Assembly: GCF_006345805.1 (NCBI RefSeq)
Contig: NC_042998.1
Location: 117,428,001 to 117,492,000 of the forward strand
DNA length: 64,000 nt
Reading direction: 5' to 3'
Source: Octopus sinensis
Lineage: Eukaryota
The notes beneath the pieces are model-generated. The model made no database searches and was not told where the DNA came from. It saw only the letters and a program-made list of their open reading frames with translations. A program made the position numbers and the translations under genes. The stretch's first letter is position 1. The number at the start of each line of letters is the position of its first letter. Shown here piece after piece: positions 13,678-64,000 of the stretch.

Positions 13678-13905
13678 TTTCTTTATTACCCACAAGGGGC
13701 TAAACATAGAGGGGACAAGGACAGGCATAGGTATTAAGTCGATTACATCGACCCCAGTGCGTAACTGGTACTTAATTTATTGACCCCGAACGGATGAAAA
13801 GCAAAGTCGACCTCGGCGGAATTTCAACTCACAACGTAACGACAGACGAAATACGGCTACGCATTTCGCCCGGCGTGCTAACGTTTCTGCCAGCTTACCG
13901 CCTTA
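13678..13905 (-). mobile_element. Full-length tRNA-derived SINE with ~17-bp TSD
   Basis: Head ggcggtaagctggcagaaacgttagcacgccgggcgaaatg and core gtcgactttgcttttcatcc. TSD taca(t)(a/t)tcacataccta at 13661-13677 and 13906-13922. Confidence 0.9.
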
Positions 13906-16806: not shown

Positions 16807-17034
16807 TGGTAAAACGGTAAGATAACAAAAGAAAGAAAGAGACCTCAATATTATGTAAATAGAGGAAATTTTATCTATACAATAATATGTTACATTACTC
16901 GATAGTCAAGATAAAAATCCACAACACCATCTCTTCGGTTATCTAGCCAGATAACCGAAGAGATGGTGTTGTGGATTTCCACTTCGGCATAACTCAGAGT
17001 TTTATCTTGACTATCGTGTAATGTAACATATTTT

Positions 17035-17037
<3 letters not shown>
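16807..17037 (+). mobile_element. Non-coding palindromic derivative of the Nematis-type PLE pseudo-LTR, in (TA)n
   Basis: Both ends are nearly identical to those of 56283-57197. Perfect 28-bp inverted arms at 16917-16944 and 16949-16976, with longer outer arms. Confidence 0.85.
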
Positions 17038-17076
<39 letters not shown>

Positions 17077-17078
<2 letters not shown>

Positions 17079-17553
17079 TAAACAGTAAAAATAATTACAG
17101 ACATGGACAAGAACATGAAACACCACAGAGACGACACAAGAACCACAGGACGGGACATTCGAAGCCCTCAGTCATCAGTCAAAAACCAGATCATCTTAGC
17201 AATTTCGGCTGATTAATCTTGAGATTGCTCCGACATGGCCAGCCCGCCAAGGGAAATCTAAGCCAAGCGCATTAGATCCCCTGGAGAGATAGAGAAACGT
17301 AGAAGGGGGTGGGGGGAAGACGGATGGAGAGGGAAAGAAAGGAAGGGGAATAAGGGAGGAGAGAGAGAGAGAGAAAGAGACAGATTAAGAGTCGTATCAA
17401 TGCTAGAGAAAAAATATACTTATCGTATAAGGACAATTGTGGATACGTAGCCGCCGATTATATAGGTAAACAGTAAAAATAATTACAGACATGGACAAGA
17501 ACATGAAACACCACAGAGACGACACAAGAACCACAGGACGGGACATTCGAAGC

Positions 17554-38088: not shown

Positions 38089-38998
38089 CAGATAAAGGGT
38101 GAAATATAATTAATTTAATAAAATCAACAAATTTCACCAAGTAGTTTTTTCTGTATGGAAAAGGACCATATTCGGTAAAATTATATATAATTAGAAGAAT
38201 GAGGGTCTTTGCAGCAGGTTGCTAGACCACATACCGAAAGTATTAGAAATAGCAGCCATACGACTGTTATTTCTTTTACTACAAAAATATGTCCCACAGA
38301 CAACAGTATTTGTAACTCACTATGGCAAAAAAAAACGAAGAAAAACAACGAAATCAAACAGTGTCCGGTCTATTATGGACGCATACGTTTCTGGATTAAA
38401 ATCACAGATTCATTTCCTTCATCAACATAATATTCCGATAAATAAATCTGAAAATGCTAGGAAATCTTACCACCATATTCCGAACAGGCGACATCGGACA
38501 TATAGAAGCTGACCAGTATATCCACATTTATATAGACAAGTGAATTCGTATCTCCCTCCAGAATTTCTATCACGTGAATCACAAAAATACTGCCGAAAAT
38601 GAATTCGTAGTTCCGTCGTAGGGAAATAAAATAATCAATACAGACAAAGGGGGAAATATAATTAATTTATTAAAATCAACAAGTTTCACCAAGTATTTTT
38701 CGGTATGGAAAAGGACCATATTCGGTAAAATTATATATAATTATAACAATGAGGGTCTTTGCAACAGGTTGCTAGACCACATACCGAAAGTATTAGAAAT
38801 GGCAGCCAGTCGACTGTTATTTCTAAACAGACACTGTTTGATTTCGTTGTTTTTCTTCGTTTTTTGCCATAGTGAGTTATAAATTTTGCTGTCTGTGGGA
38901 CATATTTTTGTAGTAAAAGAAATAACAGTCGTCTGGCTGCTATTTCTAATACTTTCGGTATGTGGTATAGCAACCTGCTGCAAAGGCCCTCATTGTTA

Positions 38999-39003
<5 letters not shown>
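38089..39003 (-). mobile_element. Non-coding retrozyme-like element: 552-bp unit, partial tandem copy and inverted segment, in (TA)n
   Basis: 38641-38824 repeats 38089-~38274. 38830-39003 is the reverse complement of ~38185-38366. (TA)n on both flanks. Confidence 0.85.
38371..38432 (-). ncRNA. Type-I hammerhead ribozyme
   Basis: tattatg TTGATGA a-gga...tcc-a GAAA cgtatgcg TC cataata. 7-bp helix I, GUC cleavage site, C3U change. Confidence 0.85.
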
Positions 39004-39095
<92 letters not shown>

Positions 39096-46479: not shown

Positions 46480-49400
46480 TAACGATTAAATAATTAAATT
46501 AGAAAAATTAGAAGAAAAGTTTTTTTAAAAGAATATTTCTCTATAGTAGTGTTCAGATTTAAGTGGCATTCTGCCTTTCTCTGACTCCCTTGTTTGCACT
46601 TGTGTGTTCGAGGTAGTTGTGAGCTCTTGGTAGGTAGTAGAGAGAAGGCTGGTGAGGAAAGGGGGTGGGAGAATCTGGGAGTGCCCTGATGGTCGTATTT
46701 TGAATGGTCAGTGGCGGCTGGCAGTCTCAGTTCAATTCAGGAGAATATTTATATTGACAGGCTTCTTTATAGAATTAGCGTAGGTGTTATACTAAAAAAC
46801 ATTAGTGACGAACTTAAGGGTAGGGTAGGGGGTGGAGAAGAAGAGAAGAAGAAGAAGAAGAAGGAGAAGGAGAAGGAGAAGATGACGATGATGGTGATGG
46901 TGGTGATGATTATGACGACGATGATGATGATAACGATGATGATGAAGAAGAAGAAGAAGAAGAAGAAGGAGGAGAAGGAGAAGATGGTGGTGATGATGGT
47001 GGAGATGATGATGATGCCGATGATGATGATAACGATGATGATGAAGAAGAAGAGGAAGAGGAAGAAGAAGAAAAAAACAGAGAAGGGAGAATATGATGTA
47101 AATATAGCTATGAAGGGGCTGATTAGTAATGGATTCTATTGAGTGTAGTATTTGTGTGTGTATATATTTTTTCTTTTATTCTAAGGTTGAGGTATATTAA
47201 TGTTTGTCGTAGACCCGTTAAGAAGTGGCTTGTATTTTGTAATAAAGAGATTTTCTTTACTTATTCGTTGTCTCGAGGTTGTATCGTCCCTAAATTGGTA
47301 GAGGGGGAAAATCTGAAGTTTGGTGTTTTTTTTGTTGGCGCAAGTATCTATGTGTTGGCTAAAAGCTATTTTTCTGTTTTGGGGAATTTTTATCTGGGAT
47401 TCTGTGCAGGGCCATTCGTTTACGCAAACCATTTTTGTGTTGGCCTATGTACTGCTCTTGACACCGGAGCAGGTTAGTGAGTATATTAGGTTCTCCGAAG
47501 CACATGTGAAGTGCTGTTCACTGTAAAACGTTGTCCCTGTTTGAAGGAGAACTCAGAACCCTCGATTAGATAGTCGCATATCCCGCAATTGGGTCTTCCA
47601 CATTTTTTACTGTCGGCTTCTGTGTGAAGAGTGAATTCGGGTTGTGTAAGGAGCCTTTTCATGGATCTAGGCTGTCTTTTGCTTTTTATGATCGTGTGTG
47701 TTTGGAGGATTGTGTACATTCTGTGTCTTTTTTTAGGAGGGGTATGTTGTGGAGGATGGTATCGAAGGCTTCGTTATTGAGAGGGTTGTGTGTGGAGATG
47801 TATGGTAAGGCTTTTGGTTGTAAGTTTTTCTTTGATTTGGGATGTCTCAGTTCCTTGATGTTAAGTTGAAGGGCACGTGAATGCATTTGTCAATAAGTGA
47901 AGGTGGATAGTTCCTGGTGATTAGGGTATCTTTTAGTTCTTGTAGTCGTGTGTCTCTGGTGTTTGCGTTAGAGACTATAGTGCATATCCTTTTGCTAGAT
48001 TGAAGGGGATATTCATCCTGGTGTGTCTGGGGTGGCATGAATTGAATGGAAGATATTGCTTAGAGTCTGTAGGCTTATAGTATATGTCTGTTTCTATTAT
48101 ATTATTAGCTTTCTTAATGAGGATATCGAGGAAGGGGAGTTGTTGTTGGCTATATTCCATCGTGAATTGGATGTTTACGTCCAGTCCGTTTAAAATATTC
48201 TGGAATTCTATGAGTTTTTCTATATTTTTATGCCAAAGGATGAAACAGTCATCTAGATATCTCTTCCAGTTGTTTTCTATGTAGATGGAGAAAGGGCTGC
48301 CATATCTTTCTAGAACCTTACGATACAGACTGATCTCTAGGTATCCTATGACTAGGTTGGCAAAGGAGGGGGCCATTCGTGTACCCATCGAAAAAGAAGA
48401 ACTGTGAAAAAGAAGAACTAAAATCTCTCCAACGCTGGGAGAAAGCGCCACTTGGTTCTCAGACTATGAAGCCGTCTTTCAAACAGAGCACGCCTCCAAC
48501 AAACCCTTCCAGAAATAAGAAAACCAAAAACACCCCAAACACCGATACACACCTCTCTAAAAATCGGAACCTTCACTACTATCAAAAAAAGAATACAGGA
48601 CCTAACCCTAACTCTGTAAGCAGCCAGCGATACAATATCAGGAATACCCCCCAATCAAGCAGAGAAAGGATAAATCAACACCCACAGCATAGACACTGCA
48701 ACCTCATCCCCACCAAAGGAGTTACCAACGAAATCTTCGTCCCATTAACCGGTTTAAACAACCATGCACAACAAACCCACACCACTTGCAATGATTACCA
48801 AGGAAGGCCTCCTAGAACACCACACCCGAATATGGGATATCGGGATGCTCTCCTCAATACTGCTCCAAGAACACACACCATAAATCAAACAGGAGACCCC
48901 TAATCACAAAGAACAACTATATAAAAGCTACCGTCCCAACCACCGCATTCATTTTTTAGACCCAATACGCAAACACAGAGACACAAGATAGCACCAAACA
49001 AGCAGGAGGAACCAAAAGTAATAAAAATTATTAATCTAACTCACAAGGAACTAACAGCAAACCAAATAAACATACTTTCCAAAGGACTCAAGTTTACACC
49101 CACCCCACAACAACCCAACTACAATGAAATGAAAGAAGACATCGCAGAATTCTGCAGAAAATTAAGACTTACTGAGGAGCTATACGATAAATACAACGAG
49201 GACGAATCGTTAGCCAGAAATAGGAGTAACTACACCCCCTCGAAAGGTAAGAATAAAACACTTGATGATTTCTGTGACCACATATCAAATTACCCATATC
49301 AACATATGCACAAACAAAAACACAAACCAAACTTCAGCAAAAAAGAATGGGCTGAGTTGAACAAATTAAAACTAGATAAAACAATAACAATCAAAGAGGC

Positions 49401-51990
49401 CGATAAAGGGAGTGCTGTTGTCTTAATGGATACGACATTTTACATAACTTTGGTACTTTCTATGCTGGAAGACACAACATACTATGAAAAGGCACAAAAC
49501 TACAGTCAACAAAAAATAATGAGGGAACTAAAATCCATATTAAACCCATACAAAGCAGGGCTAACCGACAAAGAATATGATTATATGACCAATTTCACAA
49601 GTAAAACTAGCCATTCTACGGTATACCTAAGATCCACAAAAGTGAAAAAATAAGCAACGCATGCAAGATAGCTACAGACAAAATAATTAAAGTCCCTAAT
49701 CCTAATGACCTCAAATTGAGACCCATAATAGCAGGTCCCGCATGCGAAACCCACCGCCTCAGTAACTTTTTAGACACCCTGTTAAAACCACTCCTCAAAC
49801 ATGTCAAAAGCTAATAAGGGACGACTAGATATGCTCAATCACCTACCGAATATATAAACAAAAACACCATACTGGTATCCTTCGATGTAGTCAACCTCTA
49901 CTCCAATATCCCCCACAACCTAGGACTAGAGGCAATCCAATTCTGGCTAGAGAATCACGCCAACGAAAACTACCACACCGCATCAAAAAAGAATTTGTGA
50001 TAGAAGGGGTTAAATTCATCCTGGAAAATAACTTCTTCGCCTTCAATGACAACTTCTAACCGACAAAAATCGGGGACTGCGATGGGTACACGAATGGCCC
50101 TCTCCTTTGCCAACTAGTCATAGGATACCTAGAGATCAGTCTGTATCGTAAGGTTCTAGAAGATATGGCAGCCCTTTCTCCATCTACATAGAAAAACAAA
50201 CTGGAAGAGATATCTAGATGACTGTTTCATCCTTTGGCATAAAAAATAGAAAAACTCATAGAATTCCAGAATATTTTAAACGGACTGGACGTAAACATCC
50301 AATTCACGATGGAATATAGCCAACAACAACTCCCCTTCCTCGATATCCTCATTAAGAAAGCTAATAATATAATAGAAACAGACATATACTATAAGCCTAC
50401 AGACTCTAAGCAATATCTTCCATTCAATTCATGCCACCCCAGACACACCAGGATGAATATCCCCTTCAATCTAGCAAAAAGGATATGCACTATAGTCTCT
50501 AACGCAAAACCAGAGACACACGACTACAAGAACTAAAAGATACCCTAATCACCAGGAACTATCCACCTTCACTTATTGACAAATGCATTCAACGTGCCCT
50601 TCAACTTAACATCAAGGAACTGAGACATCCCAAATCAAGAAAAAACTTACAACCAAAAGCCTTACCATACATCTCCACACACAACCCTCTCAATAACGAA
50701 GCCTTCGACACCATCCTCCACAACATACCCCTCCTAAAAAAAGACCACAGAATGAACACAATCCTCCAAACACACACGATCATAAAAAGCAAAAGACAGC
50801 CTAGATCCATGAAAAGTCTCCTTACACAAGCCCGAATTCACTCTTCAACACAGAAGCCGACAGTAAAAAAATGTGGAAGACCCAATTACGGGATATGCGA
50901 CTATCTAATCGAGGGTTTGAGTTCTCCTTCAAACAGGGACAACGTTTTACAGTGAACAGCAACTTCACATGTGCTTCGGAGAACCTAATATACTCACTAA
51001 CCTGCTCCGGGTGTCAAGAGCAGTACATAGGCCAAACAAAAAATGGTTTGCGTAAACGAATGGCCCTGCACAGATCCCAGATAAAAATTCCCCAAAACAG
51101 AAAAATAGCTTTTAGCCAACACATAGATACTTGCGCCAACAAAAAAACACCAAACTTCAGAATTTTCCCCCTCTACCAATTTAGGGACGATACAACCTCG
51201 AGACAACGAATAAGTAAAGAAAATCTCTTTATTACAAAATACAAGCCACTTCTTAACGGGTCTACGACAAACAATTAATATACCTCAACCTTAGAATAAA
51301 AGAAAAAAATATATATACACACACAAATACTACACTCAATAGAATCCATTACTAATCAGCCCCTTCATAGCTATATTTACATTCATATTCTCCCTTCTCT
51401 GTTTTTTCTTCTTCTTCCTCTTCCTCTTCTTCTTCATCATCATCGTTATCATCATCATCGGCATCATCATCATCGCCACCATCATCACCACCATCTTCTC
51501 CTTCTCCTCCTTCTTCTTCTTCTTCTTCTTCTTCATCATCATCGTTATCATCATCATCGTCGTCATAATCATCACCACCATCACCATCATCGTCATCTTC
51601 TCCTTCTCCTTCTCCTTCTTCTTCTTCTTCTTCTTCTTCTTCTCCACCCCCTACCCCTTAAGTTCGTCACTAATGTTTTTTAGTATAACACCTACGCTAA
51701 TTCTATAAAGAAGCCTGTCAATATAAATATTCTCCTGAATTGAACTGAGACTGCCAGCCGCCACTGACCATTCAAAATACGACCATCAGGGCACTCCCAG
51801 ATTCTCCCACCCCATTTCCTCACCAGCCTTCTCTCTACTACCCTACCAAGAGCTCACAACTACCTCGAACACACAAGTGCAAACAAGGGAGTCAGAGAAA
51901 GGCAGAATGCCACTTAAATCTGAACACTACTATAGAAATATTCTTTTAAAAAAACTTTTCTTCTAATTTTTCTAAATTTAATTATTTAAT

Positions 51991-53636: not shown

Positions 53637-53869
53637 GGAAGGCGGCGAGCTGGCAGAAAAGATAGCACCCCGGGCGAAATGAGTAGCCGTATTTCGTCTG
53701 CCGTTACGTTCTGAGTTCAAATTCCACCGAGATCGACTTTGCCTTTCATCCTTTCAGGGTCAATAAATTAAGTACTAGTTATGCACTGGGGTCGATGTAA
53801 TCGACTTAATCCGTTTGTATGTCCTTGTTTGTCCACTCTGTGTTTAGCCCCTTGAGGGTAGTAAAGAAA
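53637..53869 (+). mobile_element. Full-length tRNA-derived SINE with perfect 20-bp TSD
   Basis: Same family as 13678-13905. TSD tatatattagcagctgcgta at 53617-53636 and 53870-53889. Confidence 0.92.
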
Positions 53870-56282: not shown

Positions 56283-57191
56283 TGGTAAAACGGTAAGATA
56301 ACAAAAGAAAGAAAGATACCTCAATATTATGTAAATAGAGAAAATTTATCTATACAATGATATGATTAGATAATTGTGTCGCTTTTCTTTTGTTCCAGTG
56401 CCTAAAGCTCAAAGTGTGGTTATTGAACCTGGCCTTGAAGTTACCCTCTGTAAGGCCCACATATTTCTTCGTCGAAACGGTGGTTACAGAGTTTTTAGTG
56501 GTTATAGAGTTTACGGTAGCTTCATATATGATGGTCTTGGACATGCAAGCTCCATTTAGCGGGCACAATTCTTTATTCCTGCATGAACAGCTGTAACTTC
56601 AAGGCAAGGTTCAATAACCACACTTTGAGCTTTAGGCACTGGAACAAAAGAAAAGCGACACAATTATCTAATCATATTTGGTCTTTAAGAGATAAAGGTG
56701 TCGATTATAACATACATTGGAAGATTTTGGCCAGATGCAATCCCTATACCAACGGCAGCGGAAGGTGCGGTCTATGCGACATGGAGAGATGACTTATCTG
56801 GAAAAGCAGCTTAGACCCTACTACATGTCTAAACACAAGGACAGAACTTTTCGGATCATGCCCATATGTGACTAAATTTCTGTTACATTTTTGGTCCCCT
56901 AAAGAAAACAGATAGAACATGCTTTCTATGTTATGTCCCAAGATGATTTTATATATTTTTATATATTTTTTATATATTTTTTATGTATTTTTATATAATT
57001 TTTATGGCGTAAAATGCGAGCGATGTATAAGTACGCAGGCAATCAGAGTTATAACAGAGTAATTTCCCTTTGTATAACGGTATATTTTCATAGCGTTTTC
57101 AAATAGCCAGATAACCGAAGAGATGTCGTGGATTCCACTGCGGCATCTGAAACTCAGAGTTTTATCTTGACTATCGAGTAATGTAACATAT

Positions 57192-57197
<6 letters not shown>
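56283..57197 (+). mobile_element. Nematis-type Penelope-like element, 5'-truncated with inversion, in (TA)n
   Basis: Inverted part CSCRNKELCPLNGACMSKTIIYEATV...KKYVGLTEGNFKARFNNH. Direct part NFKARFNNH...LSNHIWSLRDKG...WKILARC...CGLCDMER*LI...LNTRTELFGSCPY. Pseudo-LTR carries an HHR-like motif. Confidence 0.9.
57109..57167 (+). ncRNA. Non-canonical hammerhead-like motif
   Basis: agataa CCGAAGA GATGTCG...CGGCATC-t GAAA CTCAGAG TT ttatct. U4C change and one extra U before G12. Confidence 0.65.
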
Positions 57198-57247
<50 letters not shown>

Positions 57248-61703: not shown

Positions 61704-61884
61704 CGCTCAAACCACTACGCCATATGCCCATGCGCATATGGCGTAGTGGTTAAGAGCGCGGGATACCAACCCCAAGATCCCGAGTTCGATTCCAGGCAGT
61801 GACCTGAATAATAATAACAATAATAACAACAATAATAATAATAATAAAAATAACAACAACAGCATCGAAAAATACCTTAGGAAT
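61704..61884 (+). mobile_element. tRNA-headed SINE 5' part with a fold-back head and internal (AAT)n
   Basis: A-box TGGCGTAGTGG at 61739-61749, B-box GAGTTCGATTCC at 61782-61793, and a perfect 18-bp inverted repeat 61710-61727/61734-61751. Confidence 0.85.
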
Positions 61885-61984
61885 ATAATATTTTGAGTCG
61901 AATGTTGGATTTAGGGTGGATGTTATTTTTAGTTCATTTCATTTTTACTATGATTTTTTTGAGATAAATTTATTACAGTTGAAC

Positions 61985-62264
61985 ATTTGGTTGAATATTT
62001 CCTTGAACATTGGTATTATTAGAGTTACTAATAAAAGAATTGTACATTGTTTACATTATTTACATTATTTGTAAATGTATTTATCGACGGATATGTGTCC
62101 TCATCTTGTTTGTTGTTAACAAAACATTTCGGCTGATATACCCTCCACACATCTTCAGATGACTTGTGGAAATTTCGAATCTGGGTTCTCATTCCTAAGG
62201 TATTTTTCGATGTTGTTGTTGTTGATGTTGCTAATATCATTATTATTATTGTTGTTGTTATTAA

Positions 62265-62337
<73 letters not shown>

Positions 62338-62435
62338 TTTAACCAGTTGGTTGAGTATTTCCTTGAACCTTTATATTATGAGAGTTACTAATAAAAAAAA
62401 TTGTACATTATTTACATTATTTACATTCGGCAGAT
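61985..62435 (-). mobile_element. Partial tandem of the (AAT)n plus HHR tail unit, antisense to the SINE head
   Basis: 62191-62212 is the exact reverse complement of 61863-61884. HHR-like catCTGAAGAtgtgtggagggtatatcagccGAAAtgTT at ~62118-62163. 62341-62430 repeats 61985-62070. Confidence 0.75.
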
Positions 62436-62444
62436 GTTAACCAG

Positions 62445-63790
62445 CTGATAATTTTGGTTCGATACTGTTATAATGGAAAGCCTTGTGAGAGATTTTTAGC
62501 ATTTTTGCCAATAGAAAACCATTCATCCACGACCTTGTTCAACAAAATAACACAACTTCTGGGCAAGCATAAGTTTTCACTTGAAAATATCCGTGGACAG
62601 TCATATGATAATGCTTCCACTATGAAGGGCTTAGAGATAGGGCTGCAAGCACTTCTTAAAAACATTAACAGGTATGCAGACTATGTACCATGTGAAAGCC
62701 ATTCGCTCAACCTTTTTGGAGAAAAGGCACTCTATACTGTACCTGAAGTTGTTGACTATTTTGGCATATTGCAGCAGTAGTATGTTTTCTTTTCTGAATC
62801 ACCAAGAAGACAGCGGATTTTAAACACACGCGACAATCTAGCCTTTTCTTTAAAGAGCTTAAGTGTAACTAGATGGTCTGCACTCTATCAAGTAATCCGA
62901 GAAATTAAAAATGGACAAAGGAATTTCTTTTCTACAAACTCTCAAACATATGTTCGAAGACTTAAAAGAGAAGCCTGAATGTAAGCGAGATGCAAAGAAT
63001 CGGAATATGCTGTTTTAACAGTCAGCTGGAAAGAAGTTATGGAGCATTTTAAGAAAACAAGTAAGAAACTCCAAACACTTGGTTCTGAAGTATTTGAAAA
63101 TTACCTTCTGCTAAGATTTTTGCTTTCATTTGTTAAATAACTACGATAAAATTCAGCCGACACTATGAATCAATAGTAAAAGATTTATGTGAATATATCA
63201 CCTCAAATTATTCAAAATACTTTCTTACAAATAAATTTGTAGATGGAACAAGTGATAGGGATTTTTGAAAGGGGCTGAAAAATGTAGGGTAGCAGTTCTA
63301 AATCAAGTCTATGACTGTTTGATAATCTAGTTAAGCAAGAGGATGGGCCCACATCATCTGATTGCAAGAAAGATTCGAGTTTCTTTCAGAATTGATTAAC
63401 AATTCAGAATTTGACGAGTACAATTTGCATTACAAAAACAATACTGACTACTATTAATAAATTAATGTTATCAGTTCAAAGATTATTTACACCATAGGAA
63501 ATCCCGGAACACAGAAATAAACTCACCATCTAAAATGCAATGCATAGAAGTTCTTCAGCTTATTTATGAGCGACAATTAATTGAAGTGTTCCTTAATATT
63601 ATCACTGCATTTAAGCTGTACTTGACGTTGCCAACACGAACTGTGAAGCAGAAAGACATTTCTTAAAGCCTTCCTTTATAAAAAAAATAAATTTCGGTCT
63701 ACCATGACTGAAGAGCACTTAAACTCCTTATGCATATTGTCTCAAGAAAATGACATTGCAAGGAAGCTATCATGTGACAAAACTTTAATA
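62445..63790 (+). mobile_element. Degraded hAT transposase (ZMYM1-like/Tip100-type)
   Basis: VRY...ERFLAF, IRGQSYDNASTMKG, YVPCESHSLNL, LSVTRWS, LYLTLP..CEAER, NKFRSTMTEEHLNSLCILSQEND. Confidence 0.88.
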
Positions 63791-64000
63791 AAAACGTATT
63801 TTGTAATTATCACATGTATCTTAAATATAAGATTACTATTATATTATATCGACTGTGGCATTTGTTATGTTTTACGTCTTTATTCTATGATGCATCATGC
63901 ATATATTAATTGCTTGCCTAATTATCAACCCCATAACTCAAAAAGTATAAAGCATAGACTGGAAAATATTTGTTTACACCACCGACTTTGAGAATCACAA

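Follow-up and report, generated by a model that had tools for sequence, protein, structure and literature searches.

Short interspersed elements (SINEs) are defined as passengers of LINEs. In the 64,000-nt stretch of octopus DNA analysed here, called the window, a repeat with a tRNA-like head shares a 22-mer with a hammerhead-like motif (61704-62435), and a first-pass annotation made from the letters alone took it for a SINE that parasitises the machinery of a Penelope-like element (PLE). The locus raises the question of whether head and hammerhead belong to one unit, whether this unit is an independent SINE or a part of the PLE, and how its copies are made.

Pieces of the element in the window

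The headed copy is located on the forward strand. Its tRNA-derived head (61732-61806), with an A box at 61739-61749 and a B box at 61782-61793, is identical to the family majority at 71 of 75 positions, and to tRNA genes of the same genome at 45/69 (tRNA-Arg(TCT)) and 48/75 (tRNA-Cys) positions. A fold-back arm on the reverse strand (61710-61727), an 18-bp inverted copy of the head's first bases, is a perfect complement of 61734-61751, with a computed fold z of -8.8; this junction recurs in other genomic copies and as loose ends in contigs of four runs. After the head come an (AAT/AAC)n spacer (61807-61862, forward) and the first 22 nt of the body (61863-61884, forward), where the copy ends. 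The same 22-mer is present on the reverse strand (62191-62212) and continues there into a minimal type I hammerhead motif (62118-62163, core 62158-62152, GAAA 62130-62127, predicted cut after 62123). Boxes, spacer, both 22-mers and fold-back were all found where the first-pass annotation had placed them.

The reverse-strand motif belongs to a second, headless copy, whose body (62067-62212, reverse) is 91-93% identical to the best other copies and lacks the 35-nt extension described below, and whose 5' truncation falls in an (AAT)n spacer (62213-62337, reverse). Pairwise alignment and genome search delimited two direct repeats of 88-90 nt on the same strand (61979-62066 and 62338-62427), each made of about 60 nt of local AT-rich DNA and about 28 nt of element end with its 9-nt end repeats; this composite is what had been read as a partially tandem tail. 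The 88-nt repeat used as a query matched only the two places in the window, a count that is a lower bound. Candidates for its origin are a DNA-level duplication and re-use of the template by the reverse transcriptase (RT); 3' transduction by Pol III is unlikely because a T4 or longer run lies within about 10 nt downstream.

A third piece (103-245, reverse) is a body without a head; its hammerhead is decayed, with the core starting at 230 and cleavage predicted after 195, and the 35-nt extension is present. It corresponds to the tail annotated at 103-275 and indeed holds the 5' strand of helix II, the 3' strand lying in the 61704-62435 copy, as had been proposed from the two tails together. It belongs, however, to a sister family: besides the main family A, we distinguished family B, of the 103-275 type and about 85% alike, other copies of which do carry the head, and an older family C, about 78% alike.

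Both hammerhead motifs of the window are decayed. The motif at 62118-62163 retains the core letters with 2/4 pairs in helix I, helix II is reduced to 3/5 pairs in each motif, and the fold z of +0.9 and -0.1, respectively, gave no folding signal. Rfam called neither a tRNA nor a hammerhead in the window, its matches being microsatellite-driven or due to chance, and ARAGORN found no tRNA and no cloverleaf in the head. The window alone does not show a link between head and hammerhead, because the headed piece breaks off after 22 nt of body and is oriented towards the hammerhead piece. Since the arms of the family's inverted twins point apart, this adjacency is not the family's inversion geometry either, although it had been taken for an insertion in the style of PLEs. 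The window holds a 3'-truncated headed copy with the stub of an inverted arm, beside a separate headless decayed copy.

Other repeats were noticed around these pieces. A broken transposase relic (62430-63800, forward), which we take to be of the hAT type from motifs read by eye, starts right at the right-hand direct repeat, and a broken LINE relic of RTE type, as judged by eye (384-1900, reverse), abuts the (AAT)n of the 103-275 copy. Insertions inside the (AAT)n spacer were also found in L007, L011, L022, L052 and L054, so this spacer seems to be a target for other retroelements. Nested inverted repeats with arms 95-100% complementary span about 5 kb (~46630-51845) and represent a palindromic element of recent origin or an artefact of assembly. 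Repeats of 90-190 nt and 89-95% identity, dispersed or inverted, also pair 13715-13904 with 53639-53828, 38182-38346 with 38846-39010, and 16991-17081 with 57151-57241.

The headed unit is the pLTR of a Penelope-like element

In the 2.7-Gb, microsatellite-rich genome, a search with the head gave 474 candidates, of which 40 were scored and 30 loci kept; a search with the body gave 2,273, of which likewise 40 were scored and 30 loci kept. The body was located downstream of the head on the same strand in 25 of the 29 head-selected loci other than the window (among the 40 of 474 candidates scored), which confirms genome-wide the contiguity of head, (AAT)n and hammerhead that the first-pass annotation had proposed to check. 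Head-to-body distances ranged from 21 to 633 nt in these 25 loci, the longest containing nested insertions. The unit ends with 9-nt repeats, followed in many copies by a 35-nt extension.

Several copies shared sequence upstream of the head that translates to an RT thumb and a GIY-YIG-type domain. A search with this open reading frame (ORF; 40 of 2,589 candidates scored) gave 30 loci, three of which duplicate one locus, and in 25 of the 27 distinct loci the head directly followed the ORF. The ORF, of about 2.4 kb, encodes the RT and then the GIY-YIG-type endonuclease and ends about 35 nt before the head; after it come head, spacer, body, 9-nt repeats and 35-nt extension. Two loci (L092 and L231) are near full-length, broken partial tandems with upstream repeat, extension, an ORF of about 800 codons and downstream repeat, and the ORF-bearing main body, which follows the upstream repeat, opens with the 35-nt extension. 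The N-terminal part of the ORF was found at at least 40 genomic places, with a same-strand body just upstream of the ORF in 11 of the 18 copies fetched; none of the copies examined had an unbroken ORF. Given the ORF just upstream of the head and the partial tandems, the supposed SINE is therefore the pseudo-LTR (pLTR) of an autonomous Penelope/Poseidon-type element, and the autonomous PLE with the same tail, which had been suggested as a check, exists in this genome.

Pfam called the RT (RVT_1, E 6.5e-9), and telomerase RTs in the PDB matched weakly (E 0.003). The endonuclease domain was not called by Pfam in the ORF; translations read by eye showed a GIY-YIG-type motif that has two inner Cys, with R, E and H further on, and a 44% identical relative (P0075) is named a predicted GIY-YIG endonuclease by its source. 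By the features tested the element is thus assigned to the PLEs, its clade being placed from motifs only; the CX2-5CxxC linker, a feature of Neptune and Nematis, was absent from the translations. Among close relatives of the protein, the one that bears a name is labelled an octopus protein (73% identical), and relatives outside octopus (P0001-P0004) are 63-67% identical. A metagenome scan for relatives gave 33 pattern matches, none of them confirmed. Contigs of four runs labelled as four organisms hold the element together with the fold-back junction, one of them bridging head and ORF; the summed contig depth of these four DNA-like runs declines from head to UTR, and such depth cannot rank the parts.

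Family C (L323-L334) has the same layout, but an A-rich spacer replaces (AAT)n and the cleavage triplet is GUA. Some loci are near-identical (97-99.9%) between the chromosome and small contigs (L091/L092, L062-L065, L190/L192 and L321/L322) and are probably assembly duplicates or haplotigs.

A tRNA-derived module in the pLTR

The head was compared with 20 of 46 tRNA hits from the same genome, covering six amino-acid types. The best pairwise identities were 64-68% (48/71 for tRNA-Arg(TCT), 48/75 for tRNA-Cys), and the identity was lower in a multiple alignment (40/73, 55%). The pairwise values exceed the SINEBase threshold of 60% tRNA identity across 60 nt or more, and the lower value of the multiple alignment makes the head a borderline case. 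Among the 20 genes compared it appears closest to tRNA-Arg or tRNA-Cys, which does not fix the source tRNA.

A tRNA-like module follows the end of the ORF in families B and C too. Between families A and C, 18 of 24 columns match in the A and B boxes against 29 of 71 around them (p 0.005), with columns that we chose, an alignment anchored by those boxes, and 3 and 4 copies; the A box of family C departs from the usual consensus. Among dispersed copies, the A box, the B box and the intervening DNA are equally diverged (4.3%, 3.3% and 4.2%), which indicates neutral decay and gives no support for transcription by Pol III. Our search of the open-access literature, with Repbase and Dfam lying outside it, brought up no description of a tRNA-type promoter or a Pol III module as part of an autonomous PLE's pLTR. 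To this extent it is new that a pLTR contains a module of A and B boxes derived from a tRNA, which three related families have kept.

The hammerhead lies in the frame of the ORF

The hammerhead core is kept in 101 of 187 body hits, of which 24 are fully paired (both arms, some loci being counted twice). The intact motif of one copy (L057) folds a helix I of 5 bp and a helix II of 6 bp around the core (z -1.8), with one unpaired base preceding helix II and a palindrome of two bases where helix III would be. The features tested of the minimal type I hammerheads of PLEs were all present: core letters, G10.1-C11.1, palindromic 15.2-16.2 and a short helix I. Across families A, B and C the core letters are invariant except at the free position 7 and at G12 in one copy, and core and helix II are retained while loop 2 changes; covariation analysis revealed no compensatory change across the three families. 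The minimal hammerheads of PLEs are described, in the excerpts of PMC4209133, as cleaving weakly and not as unmodified monomers, and their opposite-strand pairs as lying 100-700 bp apart.

In family A, translation from an ATG upstream of the motif would read across the hammerhead and on into the ORF in one frame; B and C have this frame open across the motif as well, barring single-copy stops and shifts. Protein constraint could thus explain a part of the motif's conservation. Third positions at the end of the ORF are already identical across families at 35 of 48 sites, so invariant synonymous positions in the hammerhead are weak evidence. The predicted hammerhead cut would remove the start codon, for which the cleavage-driven, cap-independent translation of RNA viruses is a possible parallel (PMC13725137, in the part available). 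Signs of dual coding, with the upstream ATG opening the ORF frame, were observed in L343, L350, L351 and L354 (~434-770, sense), L314 and L324; upstream of the hammerhead the families differ in length by multiples of three, and the frame is preserved by the 9-nt end repeats.

In the arms of twins (L002-L230), a biallelic hammerhead position agrees in 46 of 56 pairs and differs in 10, about 55% agreement being expected by chance; the pairs may include duplicates and some separate insertions. Some twins may have been copied from two different RNAs, which would fit a dimer.

Insertion marks and copy number

We scored 86 insertions selected on their 3' part only, after dropping three query loci and one duplicate. 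Back-to-back inverted twins were present in 60 of the 86, and in twins from a set not selected on the extension, the 35-nt extension was carried by one arm in 17 of 20 cases, by neither in 3 and by both in none. An inverted copy with a one-sided extension is the insertion pattern described for PLEs (PMC8557442, section 6 and legend of Fig. 2). Same-strand tandem short units are rare, L218 being the case among the 86.

Flanking direct repeats of at least 10 matches were found in 25 of 53 insertions (60 loci less 7 dropped as query, duplicate or compound), compared to 0.9% of mismatched flank pairs. The absence of a target site duplication (TSD) noted at the window locus therefore stands for this spot and does not extend to the family, whose TSDs measure 10-15 bp. 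They do not speak against a PLE, because variable-length target duplications are ascribed to PLEs in the excerpts of PMC8557442. An A-rich 3' flank is rare (2 of 50 copies).

Position-chosen genome blocks totalling 1.29 Mb contained 8 family insertions, leaving out two 40-nt ORF scraps and one older sister copy, which extrapolates to about 17,000 insertions of all lengths genome-wide (range 7,300-33,000). With a unit of about 290 nt, the family is short, interspersed and well above the 100 copies asked for by SINEBase.

Origin of the short copies

Sorted by their 5'-most base, the 86 insertions comprise 10 that begin in the body, 14 in (AAT)n, 11 within the head, 44 at the head edge (-13 to +8), 3 in the UTR and 4 in the ORF. 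By a rule of our own, -6 was assigned to some ends whose BLAST alignment had continued through the fold-back. Hence 44 of the 51 search-selected copies that reach +8 stop at the edge, where about 7% would be expected from the truncation rate inside the head. In the position-chosen 1.29 Mb, 2 of the 6 head-reaching copies stop at the edge (p 0.01 against the search-selected set) and the other 4 run on to -42, -222, -238 and -498, so that the pile-up may be inflated by the selection of the search.

Pol III starts about 13 nt before the A box of tRNA-type promoters. Such a start would give 5' ends at the head edge, and we consider it somewhat probable that the short copies derive from Pol III transcripts driven by the tRNA-like promoter of the pLTR. 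In this scheme, transcription would begin about 5 nt upstream of the tRNA-like +1, and Pol III would find no T4 terminator within the unit. The target would be nicked by the PLE protein, which would then prime at the extension and copy the RNA as far as its 5' end. There the new strand would often fold back on a short palindrome, giving the inverted arm. Cleavage by the hammerhead would take place in dimers only, as has been proposed for the motifs of other PLEs. The promoter probably enables the element to produce short, SINE-like copies of its tail in their thousands. The unit and the 2.4-kb majority sequence contain no T4 run (P 0.03-0.04 by codon shuffles), while two RTE controls have two T4 runs each in 1.0-1.5 kb; G4 runs are absent from the ORF too, and the lack of T4 is a weak additional hint for Pol III. 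RNase P trimming was rejected as the cause of the edge because the head has no cloverleaf and many ends lie upstream of +1.

Three unstranded RNA-seq runs of about 12 million reads each gave 10,736, 8,018 and 7,375 reads on one locus (L020). Since 67-72% of them run on into other sequence, with no pile of starts or ends, they come from copies inside host transcripts and are uninformative on Pol III starts or cleavage. Thousands of reads from these runs (X21-X23) cover L020:1290-2240, some across inverted junctions; RNA from inverted twins would become double-stranded and could thus be open to editing, and in the L020 reads A>G and T>C changes are indistinguishable from differences between copies.

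Rather unlikely in our judgement, yet the most serious competitor, is that the short copies are ordinary 5'-truncated PLE copies made from a long Pol II or circular RNA, the head being a SINE head captured long ago, or a passenger, and the edge a palindromic fold-back. Heavy 5' truncation is given as typical of PLEs in the excerpts of PMC8557442, palindrome-centred fold-back junctions are common, short and long copies cannot be told apart by sequence, and two thirds of the position-chosen copies run past the edge. The hairpin or palindrome coincides with the head edge and could itself cause fold-back on a long RNA. The longer hairpin of that RNA lies at -13, however, and was used by 2 of the 44 edge ends; this rarity favours an RNA end as the cause of the edge. 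Six edge copies (L183, L204, L212, L214, L225 and L229) start between -5 and +8 without a palindromic junction, and the boxes are kept across families whose spacers diverged, which both argue against simple truncation. A doubtful extension of the Pol III reading is that Pol III, recruited by the promoter of the upstream pLTR, transcribes the entire T4-free element. The template RNA would then itself be a Pol III transcript, which the in-frame hammerhead would switch between template and message, and the SINE-like copies would be a short by-product of the promoter in the downstream pLTR; an ORF-bearing copy that starts at head +4 (L337) and the 2.4 kb without T4 are consistent with it.

The first-pass reading of a SINE on PLE machinery was right about the link to PLEs, which is closer than it had supposed; its separate SINE with a borrowed tail is not supported. 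We regard as very unlikely an independent tRNA SINE with its own short masters, the head of which entered the autonomous element later by recombination. The dominance of short headed copies in the search-selected sets (44 of 86 at the edge and 7 further upstream) would suit it, as would the lower divergence of short-copy bodies than of ORF-linked ones (3.1% and 4.6%, p 0.01), a comparison confounded by selection on the body. But the head lies in the terminal repeat of the autonomous element itself and predates families A, B and C, because it follows the ORF in all three. Moreover, a single consensus describes both short and ORF-linked copies, their insertion marks are alike, two linked biallelic sites show both haplotypes in each class in similar proportions, and no site separated the classes (21-44 copies each) after allowing for about 200 tests. 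The short copies thus appear, from these sites, to be made from the same masters as the long ones rather than from a SINE lineage of their own. That the repeat is a conventional LINE-mobilised SINE, with hammerhead-like letters by chance, is scarcely credible. TSDs of 10-15 bp, the silence of Rfam on a hammerhead and RTE-type sequence beside or inside some (AAT)n spacers would agree with it, against which stand a tail contiguous with the PLE ORF on both sides, the scarcity of A-rich 3' flanks, inverted twins with a one-sided extension, and a motif with features of PLE minimal hammerheads (PMC4209133, as excerpted). A tail matching a LINE 3' UTR, with ordinary TSDs, had been named as the contrary outcome; the tail matches a PLE, and the TSDs are compatible with one.

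Significance and comparison with known systems

If Pol III does make the short copies, a SINE-like amplification would be run by a Penelope element and built into the end of the autonomous element itself, giving a route from a pLTR to a short parasite and a possible model for the origin of tRNA-plus-hammerhead elements such as Sm-alpha. If they come from truncation, the family is an ordinary one among PLEs, and its head a tRNA relic that was captured. How PLEs integrate is poorly known, and the thousands of copies here, in which 5' ends, TSDs and twin arms can be mapped, are material for its study. SINE-filed repeats make up 11.6% of the O. vulgaris assembly and are mostly unclassified among recent families (PMC13282606, in the part available); some octopus repeats filed as SINEs may be PLE ends.

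The nearest known systems are the endonuclease-bearing (EN+) PLEs Penelope and Poseidon, as they appear in the excerpts of PMC8557442 and PMC4209133. The octopus element shares with them the RT with C-terminal GIY-YIG-type endonuclease, the partial-tandem pLTRs, the inverted 5'-truncated copy, the 30-40-bp extension at one end, the minimal hammerhead in the pLTR and the variable TSD. Unlike the elements described there, it has a tRNA-derived A/B-box module and an (AAT)n tract in the pLTR, and its hammerhead lies in frame within the predicted N-terminus. The promoters of Penelope and Chlamys-3 overlap a spliceosomal 5'-UTR intron (PMC8557442, same excerpts), which in our view points to Pol II.

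The schistosome Sm-alpha and Sj-alpha are also tRNA-related elements with a hammerhead downstream, reported as apparently transcribed by Pol III (PMC6765202 and PMC2770079, in part). They differ in having canonical hammerheads (PMC4209133) in tandem or dispersed repeats, with no autonomous partner named in the passages of PMC6765202 and PMC2770079, whereas the octopus unit has a minimal motif of the PLE type and is physically the end of a PLE. Animal non-LTR retrozymes (10.64898/2026.07.22.740005 and PMC7229834, in part) are likewise short, non-coding, pLTR-related hammerhead units proposed to use PLE enzymes; they form head-to-tail tandem arrays with a hammerhead per unit, whereas octopus copies are inverted twins or singles, and in the available main text of the preprint (10.64898/2026.07.22.740005) the words 'tRNA', 'Pol III' and 'promoter' are absent. 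A Pol III promoter derived from a small RNA is known in the terminal repeats of the TRIMp3 elements Helenus, Ajax and Cassandra, for which a SINE insertion was proposed (PMC10886601, in part). TRIMp3 are non-autonomous LTR elements with PBS, PPT and 4-5-bp TSDs, as opposed to the autonomous PLE lineage with pseudo-LTRs and 10-15-bp TSDs of octopus.

The comparison with SINEs is divided. By the SINEBase definition, a SINE has an internal Pol III promoter and is copied by the RT of a partner LINE (PMC3531059, in part). The short octopus form works like a SINE if Pol III makes it, yet its 3' end and insertion marks are those of a PLE and not of a LINE partner. The tRNA SINEs OK, OR1 and OR2 of octopus, reportedly of tRNA-Arg origin, are said to have been described by Ohshima and Okada in 1994; like the head of the present unit, they are tRNA-derived. 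The short form may already be catalogued as an octopus SINE, in the 1994 paper or in Repbase/Dfam, without its link to a PLE.
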